Shown: one piece after another, positions 3,001 to 58,592 of the stretch
Position numbering within the stretch: position 1 is the stretch's first letter
Layout: each line of letters opens with the position of its first letter
NCBI RefSeq assembly: GCF_006345805.1
Contig: NC_043008.1
Span: 71,486,001 to 71,550,000, forward strand
Direction of reading: 5' to 3'
DNA length: 64,000 nucleotides
Source: Octopus sinensis
Lineage: Eukaryota
Program-made: the position numbers and the translations under genes
The notes under the pieces: generated by a model
What the model saw: only the letters and a program-made list of their open reading frames with translations
Told to the model about the DNA's origin: nothing
Database searches by the model: none

Positions 3001-3311
3001 CTTCCAAACACAATAGGAGTTATGCGTCTGTGCGCATACTATTACTCGCACTCTCTCTTCCTCCCTCTTTTTCCATTCGTCCCCCCTCTCTTTCTTTGTC
3101 ATACGCTCAGACATAATTTAAAGTAAATCTATCACAATTATAGAATTCTCTATTTTGTGATAATCATCTTCATGAAACTTGTTCAGCATCATAAATTATG
3201 AACTATATAAATGGAATTCATTATTATTAAACAATTGCAGCGTGGAAGGTGTTTATAAGCCATTTAAGAAACACACAAAACCGTTAGATTCACTTTAACA
3301 TATAAATTTAA

Positions 3312-3362
3312 TTTGTCAAAATATTTTCGTCGGTTTGGGACCGCGACCTGTTCACTGACAAA
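3312..3362 (-). ncRNA. Second copy of G3-C8 hammerhead (opposite arm)
   Basis: Reverse complement of 3419-3469 with one helix II mismatch. Confidence 0.75.
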
Positions 3363-3418
3363 GCTTCGTGCTGCATGAAGTTTTGTCAGTGAAGCTTTAT
3401 CGAGAAGCAGCACGAAGC

Positions 3419-3469
3419 TTTGTCAGTGAACAGGTCGCGGTCCCAAAGCGACGAAAATATTTTGACAAA
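3419..3469 (+). ncRNA. Type I hammerhead ribozyme, G3-C8 core variant
   Basis: TTTGTCA-GTGAACA-G-GTCGC(ggtcccaaa)GCGAC-GAAA-ATAT-TT-TGACAAA: 7 bp helix I, 5 bp helix II, palindromic AATATT helix III, UUU triplet. Confidence 0.8.
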
Positions 3470-3649
3470 TTAAATTCATATGTTGAAGTGAATCTAACGG
3501 GTTTGCGTTTTTTTTAAATGGCTTATAAACACCTTCCACGCTGCAATTGTTTTCGTTCCAGCACACGATCTCAGATCAAGTCTCTCGCTATGCAAGTACA
3601 TCTCCGTAATTATTATCAAAATGTTATGCTAAATAAGTTGTTCTTGAAT

Positions 3650-4761: not shown

Positions 4762-5409
4762 ATATTGTTATATTTCGGAATGGTCATATTGCCAGTTTAC
4801 CATAAAAACACACGCACTATATATTTGAGTTATTTTGCTTCAGTGATATTATTTTTATTTTAATCTTAATCTTCTTTCGGCCAGAGTTTCTTTCGTCACA
4901 CTCCTGTGACCGCATCAGTGTCCTTTGTTTTTCTTTTTCTTTCTTATTGTTTGTGTCTCTCCTTACTAACCGTCAGCCATTTTGTATTTCTATTGTATGT
5001 CTTCATTTGCGCATGCTTATATCTCTATGTGCGTCTATGTTTATTTAGTGTGTGTGGGGGGATCCCTGTAATATTTGTATCTTCTGTTTATATACATTCA
5101 TGTAATTTGTATTTTGTTTTTGTTGACACAAACAAATAAGAAAGAAGAAAACAATGGACCACTGATGCGGTCACAGGAGTGTGACGAAGAACTCTCTGCT
5201 GCTCTGCCGAAATAAGATTAAGATTAAAGTAAAAATAAATATCACTGAAGCAAAATAACGCCAAATATATAGTGGCGTGTGTTGTTATTGCTAAACGCAA
5301 ATATGACCATTCCGAATATAAACAATATCTGTTTCAACACAACGACGGCTTCACATAAAAATCTTGCACAACAAATATTTAAATATATATATATGTATAT
5401 ATATATATA

Positions 5410-5990: not shown

Positions 5991-6934
5991 ATGTGTGTGT
6001 GACATGACAGTAGTATGCTAAATGGTCAGCTGCGCTGGCCCACAGTTGGTGGTAGCAGTCGCTGTTTAATTGATGAAAATATTTCTTTTGAATGTTTTTT
6101 TAATGAAAATTGCGTAGGTGTTATTCTAAACAGCATTAGTGATAAAGTTAGGAAGGAGAAGGAAGGAGACGAGGAAAAAGAAGAGGAAAGAGAAGGGAGA
6201 ATAGGAAGGAACGTAGGTAGTGGGAAAGTAGTAAGGTGTTAAATGTTTAAATGACTTAAAATTGGCACGTTTTGGATTATAGCAGTGATTGGGACTGTAT
6301 TGGTTTTACTGTCTTTTTTCCTGTCCTGTTTTTGTTACGACTTTTACCCCATCGCAAAAAATCCCAAATTTTATTTCATTTGCTTTGCGGGAGGAACTGT
6401 TTCAAGAAGTCGTGTCTTGTCCATACGTTCGAACGCGGAGTAGCCGAAACAGGGACAACTGAAGAAGGGGAATATTCCTTGTGTTGTATGTCTTGGACTC
6501 TGTTTGTTCGTTGTTTGAAAAAAAAGTTTGTTTCCATGTTTTTGTTTTTATGTTTTCGTTTCTCATTGTGTTCAATGTTTTGTTGGTGTCCTGTACCCAT
6601 ATATGCATATATATATACATATAGATGTAGGTATGTACATATGTGTATATATGCATATGTTTATATATTATTTTGTTATTATGTATGTATATATGTATAA
6701 ATGTATAATAACTCCATAACGTGCGTTTAGAGCTAACATACCCTTTTGGCTACCACATTACATAATACAGCAGGATATCTTCTTATGCTGTGTTCTGGAT
6801 CTCAGTTTTCATATAGGATTAATATAAGAAAAATATAACCTGAAAATAGAAAACACTAGGCATAATAACAAATCGCAACCGTTGTTTCTGCACCGGATAC
6901 CAGCTTTAAATTGTTGAGCTTATATTTAATATCA

Positions 6935-22125: not shown

Positions 22126-22286
22126 TATATATATATATTTTTTTTACATATATATATATATATCACAATCAAGGACGGCCATAATAGGCCATTCACCCAC
22201 TAGAAATAACAGCCAAAAGCTTCAACCGCAAAATAAACTTAATTCTGTAAACCAGGAGAAAATAAAAGAAAACATTTACCCTGAAA

Positions 22287-22389
22287 TTCCTTATACGATG
22301 CACCGTTTCGTCTACTGTTTAATGGCAAACTAACCTGATTAAATTAAATCAAGCCAATCTACCATAGCCCTTAGATTCATCAGTAGGAA
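22287..22389 (-). ncRNA. Type I hammerhead ribozyme (inverted copy)
   Basis: Reverse complement of 22974-23076 with small indels. Confidence 0.85.
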
Positions 22390-22973
22390 TAGCCAAATCG
22401 GAACAGATATTTTTCCGAGGCATTCACGTCCATGCCTCGCCATATCTGACCTAAATTTTCAAATCGTCGCACTCGCGCCAAATTTTCGGCAGCAAATAAA
22501 TATAAGCCGCCGATTCCATTACGGAACTAACCAGAAAATTCATAATTAATCAATATAGGGAGGCAAAAAAATTTTGTAGAATTCTTTTGCCCCCAAGCGG
22601 CAAAAAGCTTCAACCGCAAAATAACAAATATATTGTTATTTTGCGGTTGAAGCTTTTTGGCTGTTATTTCTAGTGGGTGAATGGCCTATTATGGCCGTTC
22701 CTTGATTGTGATATTGAACTTAAAAATGGTTTATGACTATTTAATTTTTTCCCACTAGGCGCTGGGGCAAAGAATTCTACAAAATTTTTTTTGCCTCCCT
22801 ATATTGATTAATTATGAATTTTCTTTTCTGGTTAGTTCCGTAATGGAATCGGCGGCTTATATTTTTTGCTGCCGATAATTTGGCGCGAGTGCGACGATTT
22901 GAAAATTTTAGGTCAGATATTGGCGAGGCATGGACGTGAATGCCTCGTGAAAATATCTGTTCCGATTTGGCTA

Positions 22974-23076
22974 TTCCTTACTGATGAATCTAGGGCCTAT
23001 GGTAGATTGGCTTGATTTAATTAATCAGGTTAGTTTGCCATTAAACAGTAGACGAAACGGTGCATCGTATAAGGAA
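22974..23076 (+). ncRNA. Type I hammerhead ribozyme with extended helix II
   Basis: TTCCTTA-CTGATGA-A-TCTA...TAGA-C-GAAA-CGGTGCATCG-TA-TAAGGAA; GUA triplet, predicted cleavage after 23069. Confidence 0.9.
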
Positions 23077-23365
23077 TTTCAGGGTAAATGTTTTTTTAAT
23101 TTTTCTCCTGTTTTACAGAATAATGTTATTTTGCGGTTGAAGCTTTTTGGCTGTTATTTCTAGGGGTGAATGGCCTATTATGGCCGTTCCTTGATTGTGA
23201 TATGAACTTAAAAATGGTTTATGACTATTTAATTTTTTCCCACTAGGCCGCTGGGGGCAAAAGAATTCTACAAAATTTTTTTGCCTCCCTATATTGATTA
23301 ATTATATATATATTATAATATATATATATATATATATATGTATATGTATATATGTGTATATGTAT

Positions 23366-31364: not shown

Positions 31365-31615
31365 ATAGAATGGTTGTATACTGTCAATCTAACAAGAACG
31401 TGACAGTAGGGGGTACACCACCGCTGTATAGCCCTAGGAAGCATCGAACGCCTCCTGATAGCTTTGACACATTTTTCCCTATATGTATATAAGGACACAG
31501 GGAAAAAATGTGTCAAAGCTATCAGGAGGCGTTCGATGCTTCCTAGGGCTATTCAGTGGTGGTGTACCCCCTACTGTCACGTTCTTGTTAGATTGACAGT
31601 ATACAACCATTCTAT
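31365..31615. repeat. Near-perfect inverted repeat (arms 31365-31480 / 31499-31615)
   Basis: ~116 bp arms with ~3 differences, 18 bp spacer, (TA)n flanks. Confidence 0.95.
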
Positions 31616-46911: not shown

Positions 46912-46953
46912 AACTCTAACCGGTTTTCGCCGCAATGCAACTTTTCAAGAATT
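46912..46953 (-). ncRNA. Type I hammerhead ribozyme, U3-A8 core variant
   Basis: AATTC-TTGAAAA-GTTGC(att)GCGGC-GAAA-ACCGGT-TA-GAGTT; palindromic AACCGGTT helix III, UUA triplet. Confidence 0.75.
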
Positions 46954-48557: not shown

Positions 48558-48685
48558 AAAGAAACCGATAGAATAAGTACTAGGCTTACAAAGAATAAGT
48601 ACTGGGGTCGATTCGCTCGACTAAAGGCGGTGCTCCACCATGGCCGCTAACAAATGATTAAAACAAGTAAAAGAGTAAAAGAGAG
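48558..48685 (+). mobile_element. SINE family B tail
   Basis: GAAACCGATAGAATAAGTACTAGGC..AAGTAAAAGAGTAAAAGAG. Confidence 0.85.
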
Positions 48686-48993
48686 GGCTATATTCAAAAA
48701 TATACCTATACATATCAAAGTTGTTTTATATTCTATAATTTTCACAGACAATAAATACGATATTATTTGTTATTGCCTGAGATTTTGGTGTAATTTGAGA
48801 GGATAATACAAAAGTTATAGATGATTTAGTGATTTACTGAAAAAACCATGGCGGTCAAAATGATCAGAACGGTTGCTTTTACTCCGTGTTTTAGTATATT
48901 TAACCGGCGAACTCTAATGTTTTGAATTTGTTTACGTGGCGGTTCGTTTACTAAACATTAGTAAGAATATTTGCAGTGTACTTTGTTTATATA

Positions 48994-49872
48994 ATGCCAC
49001 TTACTCCGTTACCAATTCGTCAGTAGATTATTAAACTTCGAAGGAAGGATAATTTAAGTATTGGATCTATTGCACAGATTGTTAACAAGTCAAAAAGTGT
49101 TCTACACGGTATTCTTGAGGTCTACGATGATTGTGGTTCGTGTGAAGCAAGAAAGTTTACAGGTAGTCCAAGAAAAATGACCAAGAGAGAAGATCGTGCT
49201 ATGGTAAAGTTGGTTAAAAAGGACAGATTTAAAACTGCTGCTGCTGTTTCTCGGAAAATGAGCATTGTATTGAAGAAAACTTTATCTCGAAAAACTGTGT
49301 CTCGTCGTTTAGTTGAACATGATCTACAAGCAAGAGCACCTGCAGTGAAGCCACTGATCAGCTCCAAAAATAAAAAGTGTCGTCTTACCTTTGCAACCGA
49401 ACATGTGTTGTGGTCTCAAGAAAAATGGCAAACGGTGCATTTCAGTGATGAATCTAAGTTAATGTTATTTGGCTCAGATGGGAAAAGGTACGTTCGTAGA
49501 AAAGTAGGTGAAAAGTTGTCGCCTAAATGCCTTAAGACTAGTGTTAAATTCGGTGGAGGAAGTGTCATAGTTTGGGGAATGATATCTGGAGATGGTGTGG
49601 GCCCTTTGGTGCGATTACATGGAAAGGTAAATGCAGGAGTTTATAAACAACTTGTAAAAGATCATGTCTTTCCTGTGCTGAGAAATTCAACTAAGCGACC
49701 ACCCATATTCATGCAGGACAATGCCCCATGTCACAAGGCTAAGGTGGTCATGAACTTCCTCAAGGCTGAAAAGGTTATTCTTATGGATTGGCCTGCTCAA
49801 AGCCCAGATCTCAATCCTATTGAAAACGTATGGAATATTCTAGGAGAACGTTCGAAAGCGAGAAATCCTAAA
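48994..49872 (+). pseudogene. Tc1 DD34E transposase pseudogene
   Basis: In-frame ATG at 48994, premature TAG at codon 11, GSPR (GRPR-like), FSDESK, KFGGGSVIVWG, FMQDNAPCH, SPDLNPIE with exactly 34 residues between D and E; homology lost after ..ARNPK (3' truncated). Confidence 0.92.
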
Positions 49873-50121
49873 TACTTACATCTATATGCAAATGCTTGCA
49901 TTTATGCAGCCATACAATATGTAAACATTACAAGTATGTGGATGCAAACAGGAAGAATAAGACTCAAAATATGACTAAAGGCATATTTTCATTAATATTA
50001 ATCAGAAGCAACAGAATGATTCATGGTCCGAGAGTTTTGTGCGTTGGTAATTATTATAAAGTTTACTTCTGCTAAATATTGGTAAAAATCTATGTAAGCA
50101 TTTCTCTCTCTTTCTCTCTCT

Positions 50122-50188
<67 letters not shown>

Positions 50189-50212
50189 CAGGTATATTTT
50201 TGAATATAGCCC

Positions 50213-50385
50213 TCTCTTTTACTCTTTTACTTGTTTCAATCATTTGCCAGCGGCCATGGTGGAGCACTGCTTTTAGTCGAGCGAATCGATCCCAGTACTT
50301 ATTCTTTGTAAGCCTAGTACTTATTCTATCGGTTTCTTTTGCCGAACCGCTATGTTACGGATACATAAACACACCAGCATCGGAT
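50213..50385 (-). mobile_element. SINE family B tail
   Basis: Reverse complement of 48558-48685, extending further into the element. Confidence 0.85.
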
Positions 50386-54540: not shown

Positions 54541-54542
<2 letters not shown>

Positions 54543-55086
54543 TGGTCCCTCATAGCGTGTTGGTATCTACGCATAGTAGTACCCTCAATATAATATAAAT
54601 GAATATTTTCAAAGAGGAAGAATTTACGGATTTTTTTTCTCTTACGATGTTTTTCACGCTGACTACTGATAATTTCTTTTAAAGATTTTATCCTCAATTG
54701 TTAATTTATATTTTTCACCGGAATAGTTCAATACTGAATTTTTATTCCGACTAGGCAATTTGTTACCGAAATGCATTGCGAAAAAGCCCGCCATTTTCAT
54801 AGATATGTAAGGATAAACATTCGTACATGCTACGACGAATTCTACGGTTGGCTATCGAGTTTGTAATGTTATGTTTTTTCTTATATTTCTTGAGTCTGTT
54901 GCACTGACGAACATGAAATGCATAATCTGCATTAAATGCGAAATCACATGTGATATGTAACTGAATTCTTTTTTAAAATGATGTATTTTGAAGTTTTGCA
55001 TTCGGTAAAATTTTGTTTATTTTTAGTAGTTTTGCCCGCATTGGTCCCTCTTAGCGTGTTGGTATCTACGTATAGTAGTACCCTCA

Positions 55087-55095
<9 letters not shown>
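54541..55095 (+). mobile_element. Retrozyme-like element, 499 nt monomer + ~56 nt terminal redundancy
   Basis: 54541-54596 repeats at 55040-55095; single HHR; (TA)n on both sides. Confidence 0.88.
54898..54961 (+). ncRNA. Type I hammerhead ribozyme
   Basis: GTTGCA-CTGACGA-A-CAT...ATG-C-GAAA-TCACATGTGA-TA-TGTAAC; perfect palindrome ATCACATGTGAT; AUA triplet, predicted cleavage after 54955. Confidence 0.88.
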
Positions 55096-55119
<24 letters not shown>

Positions 55120-55396
55120 CAACAATTGAGGGTAAAATTAATTAATCAATTTCACCAAGTGTTCAGTATGTAAAAGGACCATTTAAGGCGAATTCAAAAT
55201 ATTACATTATATAATTAGGGCTTAGTAAAATAAATTACTTTGCCACATACTGAACATAATAGAAATAGCAGCCAAAAAAAAATTTTTTATCCATTTCTAC
55301 TACTTAAAGAAAATTTCTCTCAGATAATGTTTACTCAAGATAACTCACGAAGGTATGGAGGTAAATACAGAAAAATATCACAAGTACAAAGATCGT

Positions 55397-55457
55397 TTGA
55401 GAACGTCAACGTTTCTAGATTAGCCAAATAAAATCAGCATTTCTTTCGTCAGCTCAA
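55397..55457 (-). ncRNA. Type I hammerhead ribozyme (copy of 55774-55834)
   Basis: Exact reverse complement. Confidence 0.8.
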
Positions 55458-55773
55458 AATTTCTTAATTTGGATTTGGAAACACTAAAAAGAAAGAACTT
55501 TACCTCTCGGCGAACTTATCACCTCAGATGAACCAGCTCAAACTGCCAGTGCTAACAAATTCAAAATGCGCAAGCGTAAATTCCTGCACTCCTCTTCCAC
55601 CCACGTGGTCCATCTAGCAAACATTATATTTTAACCGCGAGGACCGAGGCAGTATGACAGAGAGAAATGAATTATAATATCAACAATTGAGGGTAAAATT
55701 AATTAATCAATTTCACCAAGTGTTCAGTATGTAAAAGGACCATTTAAGGCGAATTCAAAATATTACATTACTA

Positions 55774-55834
55774 TTGAGCTGACGAAAGAAATGCTGATTT
55801 TATTTGGCTAATCTAGAAACGTTGACGTTCTCAA
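55774..55834 (+). ncRNA. Type I hammerhead ribozyme
   Basis: TTGAG-CTGACGA-A-AGA...TCT-A-GAAA-CGTTGACG-TT-CTCAA; GUU triplet. Confidence 0.8.
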
Positions 55835-56949
55835 ACGATCTTTGTACTTGTGATATTTTTCTGTATTTACCTCCATACCTTCGTGAGTTATCTTGAGTAA
55901 ACATTATCTGAGAGAAATTTTCTTTAAGTAGTAGAAATGGATAAAAAATTTTTTTTTTGGCTGCTATTTCTATTAAGTTCAGTATGTGGCAAAGTAATTT
56001 ATTTTACTAAGCCCTAATTATATAATGTAATATTTTGAATTCGCCTTAAATGGTCCTTTTACATACTGAACACTTGGTGAAATTGATTAATTAATTTTAC
56101 CCTCAATTTTACCCACTGCTTTGTCACTTCATTCGAGAGTTGTGGGAGGCTATCGAGGTAGCCGATAAAGTCCATAAATCCTTGTGACTGACTACTTTCT
56201 CTGAAGAGTTGAGCAAAATGATGCTTGAAGCCGTGGATACTTGCTTTGAATCGTACAGTAAGCGTCCATCCTGATTCGTGAAAGACTGAATTGTGGCCTT
56301 CTTACCCTTAACCTCCCAAGCCCATTAAACTCATTGAATTTATTCTTGTTGTAACAGATTATTACTAACGTTGACAAAGCATCCTTCGAATAAATTGCAA
56401 GTTGGATGCATTTCTAATTGCCTCCTCAGTTTACTAACAAACTCCCCCTCCTCCTCCTCATTCTCCTCTAATCTATTTCTCTCTAAACACAATAACCACT
56501 GTATTTAATTGCCCTTGTTGTTGACTACTTCACCTGTCAAATGCCGCTTCACTAGGTCGCTAATTCAGTTTCCGCATTTATCTTTTCGTGTTGGGAAAGA
56601 TGCATTCCATTTCCAGTAACCGGATTCCTGTCTATGTGTCCTATCTGAAGTAATTACGCAGATTACAAGTTTGTGATTTGTGTAACCGGCCAGTTATAGA
56701 GATTTTAAAAAACTATATTTTCCAGCTAACTTAACTTATAATCAAAGCACGATTTGGAAAACCCATTTTTGTGTAAGTTGACATTTTCGAAAATTCCGTT
56801 GGGTACCTATTAAAATCTGGAAACGTCGGAACATGTTTTGCAGGGAAATGTATCGCCTTCTGTGTGTTAAACCTACACAATCCATCTTGCGTGCAAAACA
56901 ATATTCTACTCCCCTGGTACGAACCGTGGTGTGGTGGTGCTGATGAGAA

Positions 56950-58592
56950 AGGATCTGAAGTAGGGGGACCAAAGGGAAAATTTAGGTTCATAACTCTCTT
57001 GAGCGCAGCTTACAAGATTTTGGCCAAGGCGTTAGCCAACAGGATAGCGCGTGTCGTCAATAAACTGGCCGGTGTCGAGCAAACAAAGTTATCCTGAGTA
57101 AATCTATCAACGACAACCTCCATGTCAGCACGCGTTAAATCATAGACAACGTAGTGAAGGAACCAGTCATGGGTAGGGCCCTGATCATTTGGGATCAAAA
57201 GCTTTTGATAGAGTCTACCATCAATCCTTGAAAACTCTCCTCGTAGCACCTGGTTTCGATCGCGTTTTCAGAAGCTGGATCGCTGCAGTATCCATCGACA
57301 TCTTCTCGGTGGTCAAAGTCAATGGCCACCTATCGGAAACGTTTATTATCGTACGTTCGGCTCATCAAAGATGCCCACTCTAGCCTCGTCTCTATGTACT
57401 GGCCCTCGAGCCACCACTAAGCAAGTTTGATGTTTCGAAAGGTGTATCACGTGAGTTAGGATGCGGAAATCTCGTGTCGGCTTATGTGGATGACATCACC
57501 CTAATAGTGTCGGACATCTCGTAAATCGAGGTGATCAACACTACCTTAAAGAGTACGAAGCGATTACAGGAGCAACGATTCACCCGGAGCATTTAGTGGA
57601 TATGGAGCTCGGCATCAGGAAAGGCAGTTTCATGTCGGTTAAAATGCTTGGAGTCTGCTTTGTTCCGCACCTCCAGGTGGACTAGAACTGATGTCAAGTG
57701 ACGAGAAGGGAATTTGCTCTTCGGTTTTCTATGTAAAGAACGTGTTCAACTTACAGCCATCTGGCTGTTGGATAGTGATATCGGTGGCAGTTCCTCATTG
57801 GAATTCGACAGGGGAGCAGTGGTGGGCAACAGCGATTACTTCCTCGGGAAAACTTTCGGGCCGTGGCCTATTGATAATCTCCAGATATTCTTGTTCTAGT
57901 AATGCTATCGGGAGTTCTGCCTGTTCAAGACAGGCTCTACAGGAACCAAAATATTGTCAGACGGATGTGTGTGAGAGGTGCGCAGGGCGATGAAACCGTC
58001 TAGTCCCTGGGTATTAATGACACGTAAATCTTTGCGGATTAGCTGCTGATATGTGTAGGACGGATCAGGTTGTCAGCCGAATCCATCGTGAAGATCGCCA
58101 TGCTACCTTGCTTTAGACTGGAAGGGAAGACAGTTTTCTTCTACCTACTGGCTATGCGAAAGAGCTAGTATGATGCACGAAGTTGAAAGAACCAAAGAGA
58201 GATATTTGCTTCGGATAAGCCCTCATCGACTTTTCCAAGTTCTATTTGTAAAGGGAATTGAGGGTGGAGAGGGAAATATTGCCTCCCTAGTATTTTTGTT
58301 GAAAGGTGAGTGAATATGGCGCGAATGGCCCGTGTAAATGTGTCTACTCTGAACGTATACTTCTAAGCTTGAGGAAAGAGCCATCTGTTGAGATCGGGTA
58401 ATCAGGATGTGTGAGGTTTTTACGATGTCTCGGATTCGAAGATCCCCCATTTGAGGATTTTTATTTTTGGATTGTGTTAAATATTTTTGCTTTATTTTTA
58501 TTAAAAAAGTTTTGTGTTAAACCCGACGTGTCATTTGTATCATATCGTCCCTTTTTGTCTTGTGTTCGGCCCTTCTGGACAATAAAGGTAAG
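56950..58592 (+). mobile_element. Tx1/L1-like LINE relic (RT through zf-RVT and 3' UTR)
   Basis: FRFITLLSAAYKILAKALANRI, SKAFDRVYH, HQRCPL*P..ALEP, AYVDDI, CERC..DETV; multiple stops. Confidence 0.88.

Follow-up and report, generated by a model that had tools for sequence, protein, structure and literature searches.

The locus at 55120-56108 of the window (the whole 64-kb stretch of DNA that was analysed) holds 1.16 tandem units and a head-to-head inverted, 5'-truncated unit of a high-copy, non-coding hammerhead repeat. We regard it as the probable result of a single, recent insertion by the reverse transcriptase (RT)-endonuclease of a Penelope-like element (PLE) acting in trans, in which the break inside helix I of the ribozyme would be nothing out of the ordinary. 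The repeat is most likely a non-autonomous, retrozyme-like passenger, because a partial tandem, an inverted 5'-truncated copy and a (TA)n target correspond to the published layout of PLE insertions. The focal insertion is an ordinary example of a described insertion type. Its parts are as follows.

55087..55119, no strand assigned: left target, (TA)n, common to the neighbouring element, which lies tail-to-tail; ATAT microhomology with the focal element's own continuation
55120..55770, minus strand: direct arm, a full 561-nt non-coding unit (approximately 55120-55680) and a 5'-truncated 90-94-nt piece of the next unit, which precedes it in RNA sense
55771..55773, no strand assigned: junction, 3-nt CTA between the two RNA 5' ends, with no target-site or clean microhomology signature
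55774..56108, plus strand: inverted 5'-truncated arm of 335 nt, head-to-head with the direct arm

The first-pass annotation had described a 561-nt monomer present in about 1.16 minus-strand copies, and this is borne out by a perfect direct repeat of 94 nt at period 561 (55116-55209 and 55677-55770), i.e. approximately 651/561 = 1.16 units. The direct arm represents a pseudo-LTR-like partial tandem with its RNA 3' end towards the left (TA)n; the exact left end of the insertion is ambiguous over 55116-55120, because ATAT also occurs in the (TA)n. The near-identical inverted copy that had been proposed to begin at 55774 was confirmed as well: in the BLAST alignment, 55774-56108 matches 55457-55124 with 99.4% identity over 335 columns, and the arms differ at only two places, a substitution at 55256 and a 1-nt indel (an extra A in a homopolymer) at 55273. 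The inverted arm starts at the second base of helix I and stops 4-8 nt before the position that corresponds to the outer end of the direct arm. Read on the minus strand, the insert is thus ordered as inverted arm, linker, 90-94 nt of the 3' end of one unit, the full unit and (TA)n; the RNA-sense 3' ends of both arms point outward and lie 4-8 nt apart on the unit, while the 5'-truncated ends meet in the centre. The CTA previously called a 3-bp linker is present, but it is not cleanly untemplated, as its letters can partly be assigned to either side.

The right junction is not (TA)n. Comparison of the flanks revealed no target-site duplication (TSD), the 30-40-bp tail typical of PLE insertions is absent, with the focal outer ends differing by 4-8 nt, and there is no junction palindrome in the focal copy. 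A period-12 direct repeat of 10 nt (56093-56114) straddles the right junction; either the target resembled the end of the element or the RT slipped at its start. The sequence beyond it can be listed as follows.

56109..56330, minus strand: right flank, read by eye

This piece resembles what we take to be a decayed part of a LINE ORF2, for which no Pfam or PDB match was obtained. A weak RVT_1 match exists at 56777-57094 (E 0.008). The region 56109-57500 as a whole resembles a decayed LINE, in which a piece on the minus strand gives way to an RT piece on the plus strand; this change of strand may reflect a separate twin-priming inversion. Elsewhere in the window, a Tc1/mariner element at 48558-50339 has 157-nt inverted ends (95.5%) and an open transposase frame of 315 aa at 49027-49971 (HTH_Tnp_Tc3_2, DDE_3).

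Typical PLE insertions are described as a partial tandem with an adjacent inverted 5'-truncated copy and a bias towards microsatellites (PMC8557442, Craig et al. 2021; PMC3846280, Arkhipova et al. 2013). That the whole layout matches this known structure had escaped the first-pass annotation. Two of the features used to recognise insertions of endonuclease-bearing (EN+) PLEs are found here: the partial tandem or pseudo-LTR is joined to a head-to-head inverted 5'-truncated copy, and the target is AT-rich (TA)n, the latter at the left junction only. The tail of 30-40 bp and the TSD are missing at the focal insertion, and both are described as optional or often unreadable in microsatellites (PMC8557442). 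An ORF for a telomerase-like RT with GIY-YIG endonuclease was also looked for, and no such domain appeared in 150 of the 632 stop-to-stop frames of the 64-kb window. Work on PLEs furthermore notes pairs of hammerheads on opposite strands 100-700 bp apart (PMC4209133); the two focal hammerheads lie on opposite strands at a distance of 327 bp. Biochemically, purified PLE protein is reported to cut and extend both target strands, to start internally at adjacent sites and to use uncleaved RNA (PMC11167929, Frangieh et al. 2024). Non-coding type I hammerhead repeats have been described as non-LTR retrozymes (PMC7229834) and as non-autonomous derivatives of PLEs (bioRxiv 10.64898/2026.07.22.740005).

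On this background, the following course of events can be proposed. A PLE protein would bind an uncleaved RNA of more than unit length, either a multimer or a circle, and its GIY-YIG endonuclease would cut both strands of the AT-rich target. Reverse transcription could then start from both target ends, at internal sites of the RNA so close together that the outer ends would come to lie 4-8 nt apart. One cDNA would grow to 651 nt, passing through the ribozyme into the next unit, and the other would stop after 335 nt, before the truncated ends of both are connected head to head by end-joining, with the addition of a few bases. Priming and joining are the steps that we infer, and the step with two primers would look the same as fold-back synthesis.

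The 561-nt unit has a GC content of 33.5%, its longest ATG-started ORF comprises 34 aa, and it folds better than shuffled versions (z = -5.2, none of 100 shuffles as good). Part of the stretch was found in 20 of the 24 sequencing runs listed, half or more of its words in five, which come from organisms coded A to C; no RNA run was listed as containing it. Family depth was analysed with contigs of four DNA-type runs (X1, X2, X4 and X5) on the stretch 55210-55773, without flanks; 1360, 4120, 979 and 2115 contigs could be placed on one unit, respectively. The depth figures are sums over overlapping contigs and not copy numbers; in these terms the family is approximately tenfold deeper at the RNA 3' end, and its depth falls below 55666. 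The tandem joint 55770->55210 is present in the contigs of all four runs. Depth is low at 55495-55551, which we attribute to diverged subfamilies and not to truncation, given that the loose ends at 55489 and 55498 are similar to the sequence of the unit there. At 55659, many family contigs among the loose ends listed agree with the unit at its 3' end and over some 20 nt past it, and then continue into other sequence; these may be either subfamilies with different bodies or an autonomous partner. Searches of metagenomes gave 0 matches by pattern scan, and seven matches of a 21-mer were rejected, as they do not extend and lie on contigs with 45-51% GC. In the accessible text of the papers cited here on retrozymes and PLEs, the family is absent.

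At 55290, the two arms carry the same letter, which is missing from 97-99% of the family depth, and therefore they come from one source. At 55256, where the arms differ, the inverted arm carries the letter of the family (87-94% of depth). The earlier view that near identity means recent insertion holds with 1 substitution per 334 nt between the arms, which corresponds to approximately 0.4 My (interval 0.01-2.3 My) if the octopus calibration of PMC13282606 applies, bearing in mind that gene conversion between the arms could make the insertion look younger. The SINEs and the microsatellite load may point to an octopus.

The predicted ribozyme of the focal unit was located by motif scan and folding.

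55390..55464, minus strand: type I hammerhead-like motif

The motif follows the core order CUGANGA ... GAAA ... NUH, with CUGACGA at 55452-55446, GAAA at 55415-55412, a short helix III and a predicted cut after 55402 (GUU). Helix I of this intact copy is built from 6 proximal pairs, between 55458-55453 and 55396-55401, and from a 3-bp outer stem that follows a 3x3 loop. Helices I, II and III are able to form around the core, the catalytic fold being predicted at -8.4 kcal/mol, i.e. 1.4 above the minimum free energy of -9.8 kcal/mol; predicted pair probabilities amount to 0.63-0.87 for helices I and II and to 0.12-0.13 for the weak helix III. The closing pair G10.1-C11.1 of helix II is replaced by an A.A mismatch; a U.U mismatch at the base of helix II is reported to be tolerated in a retrozyme of the axolotl (PMC7229834). 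Rfam returned no hammerhead family for the focal motif, neither at the gathering score nor at E<=10, hence the hammerhead call rests on the motif. In the scan, the real window gave matches at 5 cores (the one at 6459 doubtful), while 2 of 30 shuffled windows contained one match each. The candidate core at 6459 and a relaxed match at 46948 were dropped as chance-like. Within the family, the predicted cleavage triplet at 55402 reads GUA instead of GUU in 54, 46, 51 and <1% of the depth in X1, X2, X4 and X5, respectively, and a variant at 55407, which makes helix III palindromic, accounts for 33-55% of family depth; among the 40 of 58 variants listed for the family contigs, none affects the core or helix I. 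As modelled, the motif fits the conserved dimer-type PLE hammerhead in the form described in PMC4209133, with weaker letters in the focal copy. A further copy of the hammerhead lies on the plus strand within the inverted arm, with its core from 55779 and its predicted cut after 55829; this copy has lost one pair of helix I. The breakpoint had originally been placed at the first base of helix I; it is indeed inside helix I, but at the second base of the 6-bp proximal stem. The arm only seems to start at the first base, since one base of the sixth pair was lost with the truncation.

Three other hammerhead insertions of the window allow for comparison.

54541..55090, plus strand: left neighbour from a second family, a partial tandem of a 499-nt unit with (TA)n on either side
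22160..23305, no strand assigned: third family, internal control, approximately 490-nt unit; partial tandem 22630-23305 (plus), head-to-head inverted arm 22593-22160 (approximately 434 nt)
4762..5328, no strand assigned: fourth, older family, internal control, head-to-head arms 84% alike between (TA)n tracts

In the left neighbour, the hammerhead core lies at 54904, cleavage is predicted after 54955 (AUA) and helix III is palindromic; the 5' end of this element lies 357 nt upstream of its own helix I edge. Its unit aligns to the focal unit with a score of 139 compared to 130 +/- 10 for shuffles, only a motif at the 3' end being common to both. Any homology among the focal, left and third units had to be rejected, as it was not above shuffles. 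At 54541-55134, two unalignable hammerhead families hence stand tail-to-tail in one (TA)n and bear the same end motif ACCCTCAAT just after a hairpin, which makes it a candidate for a shared RT start signal; the left unit has a second near-copy of the motif at 54685-54711. The third family shows the same tandem-plus-inverted layout as the focal insertion and breaks elsewhere. Its hammerhead (core 22981) has an 8-bp helix I and a 66-nt helix II, neither of its 5' ends is at helix I, and a separate 60-nt snap-back palindrome sits at the junction; the outer ends, both in (TA)n with AT microhomology, differ by about 100 nt. The fourth family carries a variant hammerhead-like core, CUGAUGC, which was called by eye with lower confidence and 37 nt upstream of which the right arm starts. 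Helix II of each of the three well-formed hammerheads contains an internal loop and has a mismatch at its base (22988, 54911 and 55445: A.C, A.C and A.A instead of G10.1-C11.1), possibly a conserved lineage variant. Moreover, long palindromes without hammerhead were observed at 3229-3552 (88%) and 31365-31615 (94%), the latter between (TA)n tracts; they are either MITE-like or stumps of head-to-head insertions.

With regard to the position of the break, one base inside helix I, we consider ordinary truncation the most likely cause, with at most a mild preference for this site. Of the seven arms with a hammerhead in the window, only one terminates at the edge of helix I. Four others end 312, 357, 343 and 209 nt upstream of this edge, and for the last two the upstream distance is counted from the core (37 and at least 39 nt); the seven arms stem from 4 insertions of 4 families and form a small, non-independent set, in which the fourth ribozyme was called by eye and from which the palindromes 3229-3552 and 31365-31615 were left out, as they are devoid of a hammerhead. 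By chance, one of 2-3 ends would lie within 1-5 nt of 2-5 ribozyme landmarks in 2-27% of cases, and in 2-3% at the tightest setting; these figures do not yet allow for the focal case having been picked from many. The contigs of the family point in the same direction as the arms. In the bins directly inside and outside the helix I edge, summed depth amounts to 155886/172380, 164612/177918, 14096/18592 and 389481/408983 in the four runs, i.e. there is no depth step at the edge in any of them, nor a site with many ends among the 24 of 244 loose ends listed, although a small peak at helix I would be missed at this coverage. Literature searches by title or abstract start did not retrieve a paper on breakpoint enrichment at PLE hammerheads.

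Among the alternatives, the break could mark the end of the template. If the copied RNA starts at the outer edge of helix I, with transcription beginning there, or is spliced at this place, the RT would simply run off, and the ribozyme would mark the site without acting as a block. For Penelope of D. virilis, an intron end was indeed mapped to the 5' end of helix I (PMC4209133), and the focal stop is 5 nt upstream of the core. However, the missing depth step in 4 of 4 runs, together with similar depth far upstream in X1, X2 and X4, speaks against a preferred 5' end, and so do the six of seven arms that extend past the edge, including the direct arm of the same event, which reads 312 nt beyond it. 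Furthermore, the nearest good-looking splice acceptor, as judged by eye, is located about 26 nt upstream of the break. We therefore hold such a template end to be unlikely. The same idea can be put more broadly, namely that several unrelated 490-560-nt hammerhead repeats are retrozymes caught in Penelope-type insertion from RNA of more than unit length, with a common helix II variant and with the helix I edge as a preferred 5' end that is set by RNA start or splicing. This is a speculative proposal, and on the whole we doubt it. If it were true, it would provide a handle on the role that hammerheads play in PLE transposition, and 5' ends, once mapped, would show where the template begins and allow the function of hammerheads in the PLE cycle to be examined.

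It is also conceivable, though decidedly unlikely, that the inverted arm arose by self-priming, i.e. by fold-back of the first cDNA or of an antisense template, in which case 55457 would be the start of synthesis, chosen by short homology, and not a stop. Such a mechanism was proposed from junction palindromes (Arkhipova et al., PMC3846280), and the 60-nt palindrome at the junction of the control element 22160-23305 would suit it. The focal copy, in contrast, has no junction palindrome. A 7-nt word common to the helix I 5' strand and to the last 20 nt of the direct arm gives a weak hint, but this word occurs at 3 places of the unit and is not exactly reproduced by the junction. Moreover, self-priming alone leaves unexplained why the arm ends 4-8 nt from the 3' terminus of the family, short of (TA)n.

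The first-pass annotation had attributed the break to stalling or template switching of the RT at the folded ribozyme, and this claim is not supported; we rate it as very improbable. It has in its favour that the break is inside helix I. However, the stop is on the exit side of the structure, because an RT moving along a sense template had by then copied the 3' strand of helix I, helix III, helix II and the core. At 55457 the whole motif has been copied from a continuous sense template, so that helix I is already open. Stalling could work only if the RT jumped to the 3' end of a second, cleaved RNA in which helix I was still closed. Helix I is, in addition, a weak AU-rich stem of 6 bp, and the energy required to open the 4 or 8 bases that the RT would have met next does not stand out (ranks 108, 91, 154, 205, 266 and 379 of 561 positions in six settings). 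The absence of a depth step and the read-through of the ribozyme in six of the seven arms argue against a block as well, and mutation of the hammerhead is reported to leave insertion size and product unchanged in vitro (PMC11167929).

We give next to no weight to the possibility that the inversion arose as an artefact, from assembly or from fold-back in the library, or through rearrangement of the DNA at a later time. The inversion junction is not among the listed joints or the 24 of 244 loose ends listed for the contigs of the four runs, but the arms differ at two places with the inverted arm carrying the family letter at the substitution, 316 nt of spacer remain unpaired, the flanks differ, both outer ends are at the family terminus, and two more head-to-head insertions, with arms 84-94% alike, are present in the window.

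Returning to the Penelope-type insertion as the preferred reading, one further expectation concerned its RNA. Transcription through the locus had been suggested to yield approximately 334 bp of dsRNA, and the geometry agrees with this, as 333 bases are predicted to pair between the arms in transcripts of either strand. Nevertheless, this property is not specific to the locus but generic to Penelope-type inverted insertions, since read-through of the control element 22160-23305 would pair as many as 458 bases. Small RNAs could come from the hairpin RNA only in the case of read-through transcription of the locus, a condition that holds for any inverted PLE copy.

As a single insertion, the locus carries little weight, since it repeats a described architecture. 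Compared to PLE-type hammerheads (Cervera and de la Pena 2014, PMC4209133), it shares the type I fold, the conserved core, a long helix II, a short helix III that is palindromic in the family variant, and the opposite-strand pair within the reported 100-700 bp; it differs from the forms described there by A.A at the base of helix II, the GUU triplet and a non-palindromic loop 3. The comparison with animal non-LTR retrozymes (PMC7229834; Li, Clavereau and Pollet 2026, bioRxiv 10.64898/2026.07.22.740005) shows on both sides a tandem unit that is non-coding, low in GC and strongly self-paired and contains a type I hammerhead, together with a high copy number and a proposed dependence on PLEs. The focal unit is indeed non-coding, with a GC content under the 45% used to recognise retrozymes, and highly self-paired. 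Its 561 nt exceed the 170-400 nt given by Cervera and de la Pena 2020 (PMC7229834) but are within the 51-972 of the 2026 preprint. In contrast to retrozymes, the focal locus has a single ribozyme in its tandem and an inverted arm; an active retrozyme, as the preprint defines it, has at least two consecutive units each with a full ribozyme, compared to 1.16 units here. Text searches of PMC7229834 and of the 2026 preprint found no inverted retrozyme insertion, and octopus appears in neither.

The likeness to insertions of EN+ PLEs extends from the pseudo-LTR partial tandem and the head-to-head inverted 5'-truncated copy to the (TA)n, the hammerhead within the repeat and a ribozyme that was read through uncut. 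The focal copy deviates from these insertions in that it lacks an RT/GIY-YIG ORF, i.e. it is non-autonomous, that its outer ends are 4-8 nt apart without a 30-40-bp tail, and that neither a TSD nor a junction palindrome was found. This genome accommodates at least four hammerhead repeat families in 64 kb. The locus is of modest value in that non-coding hammerhead units here bear the full Penelope insertion signature, which adds evidence from insertion ends to the sequence-derived view that animal retrozymes are mobilised by PLEs.
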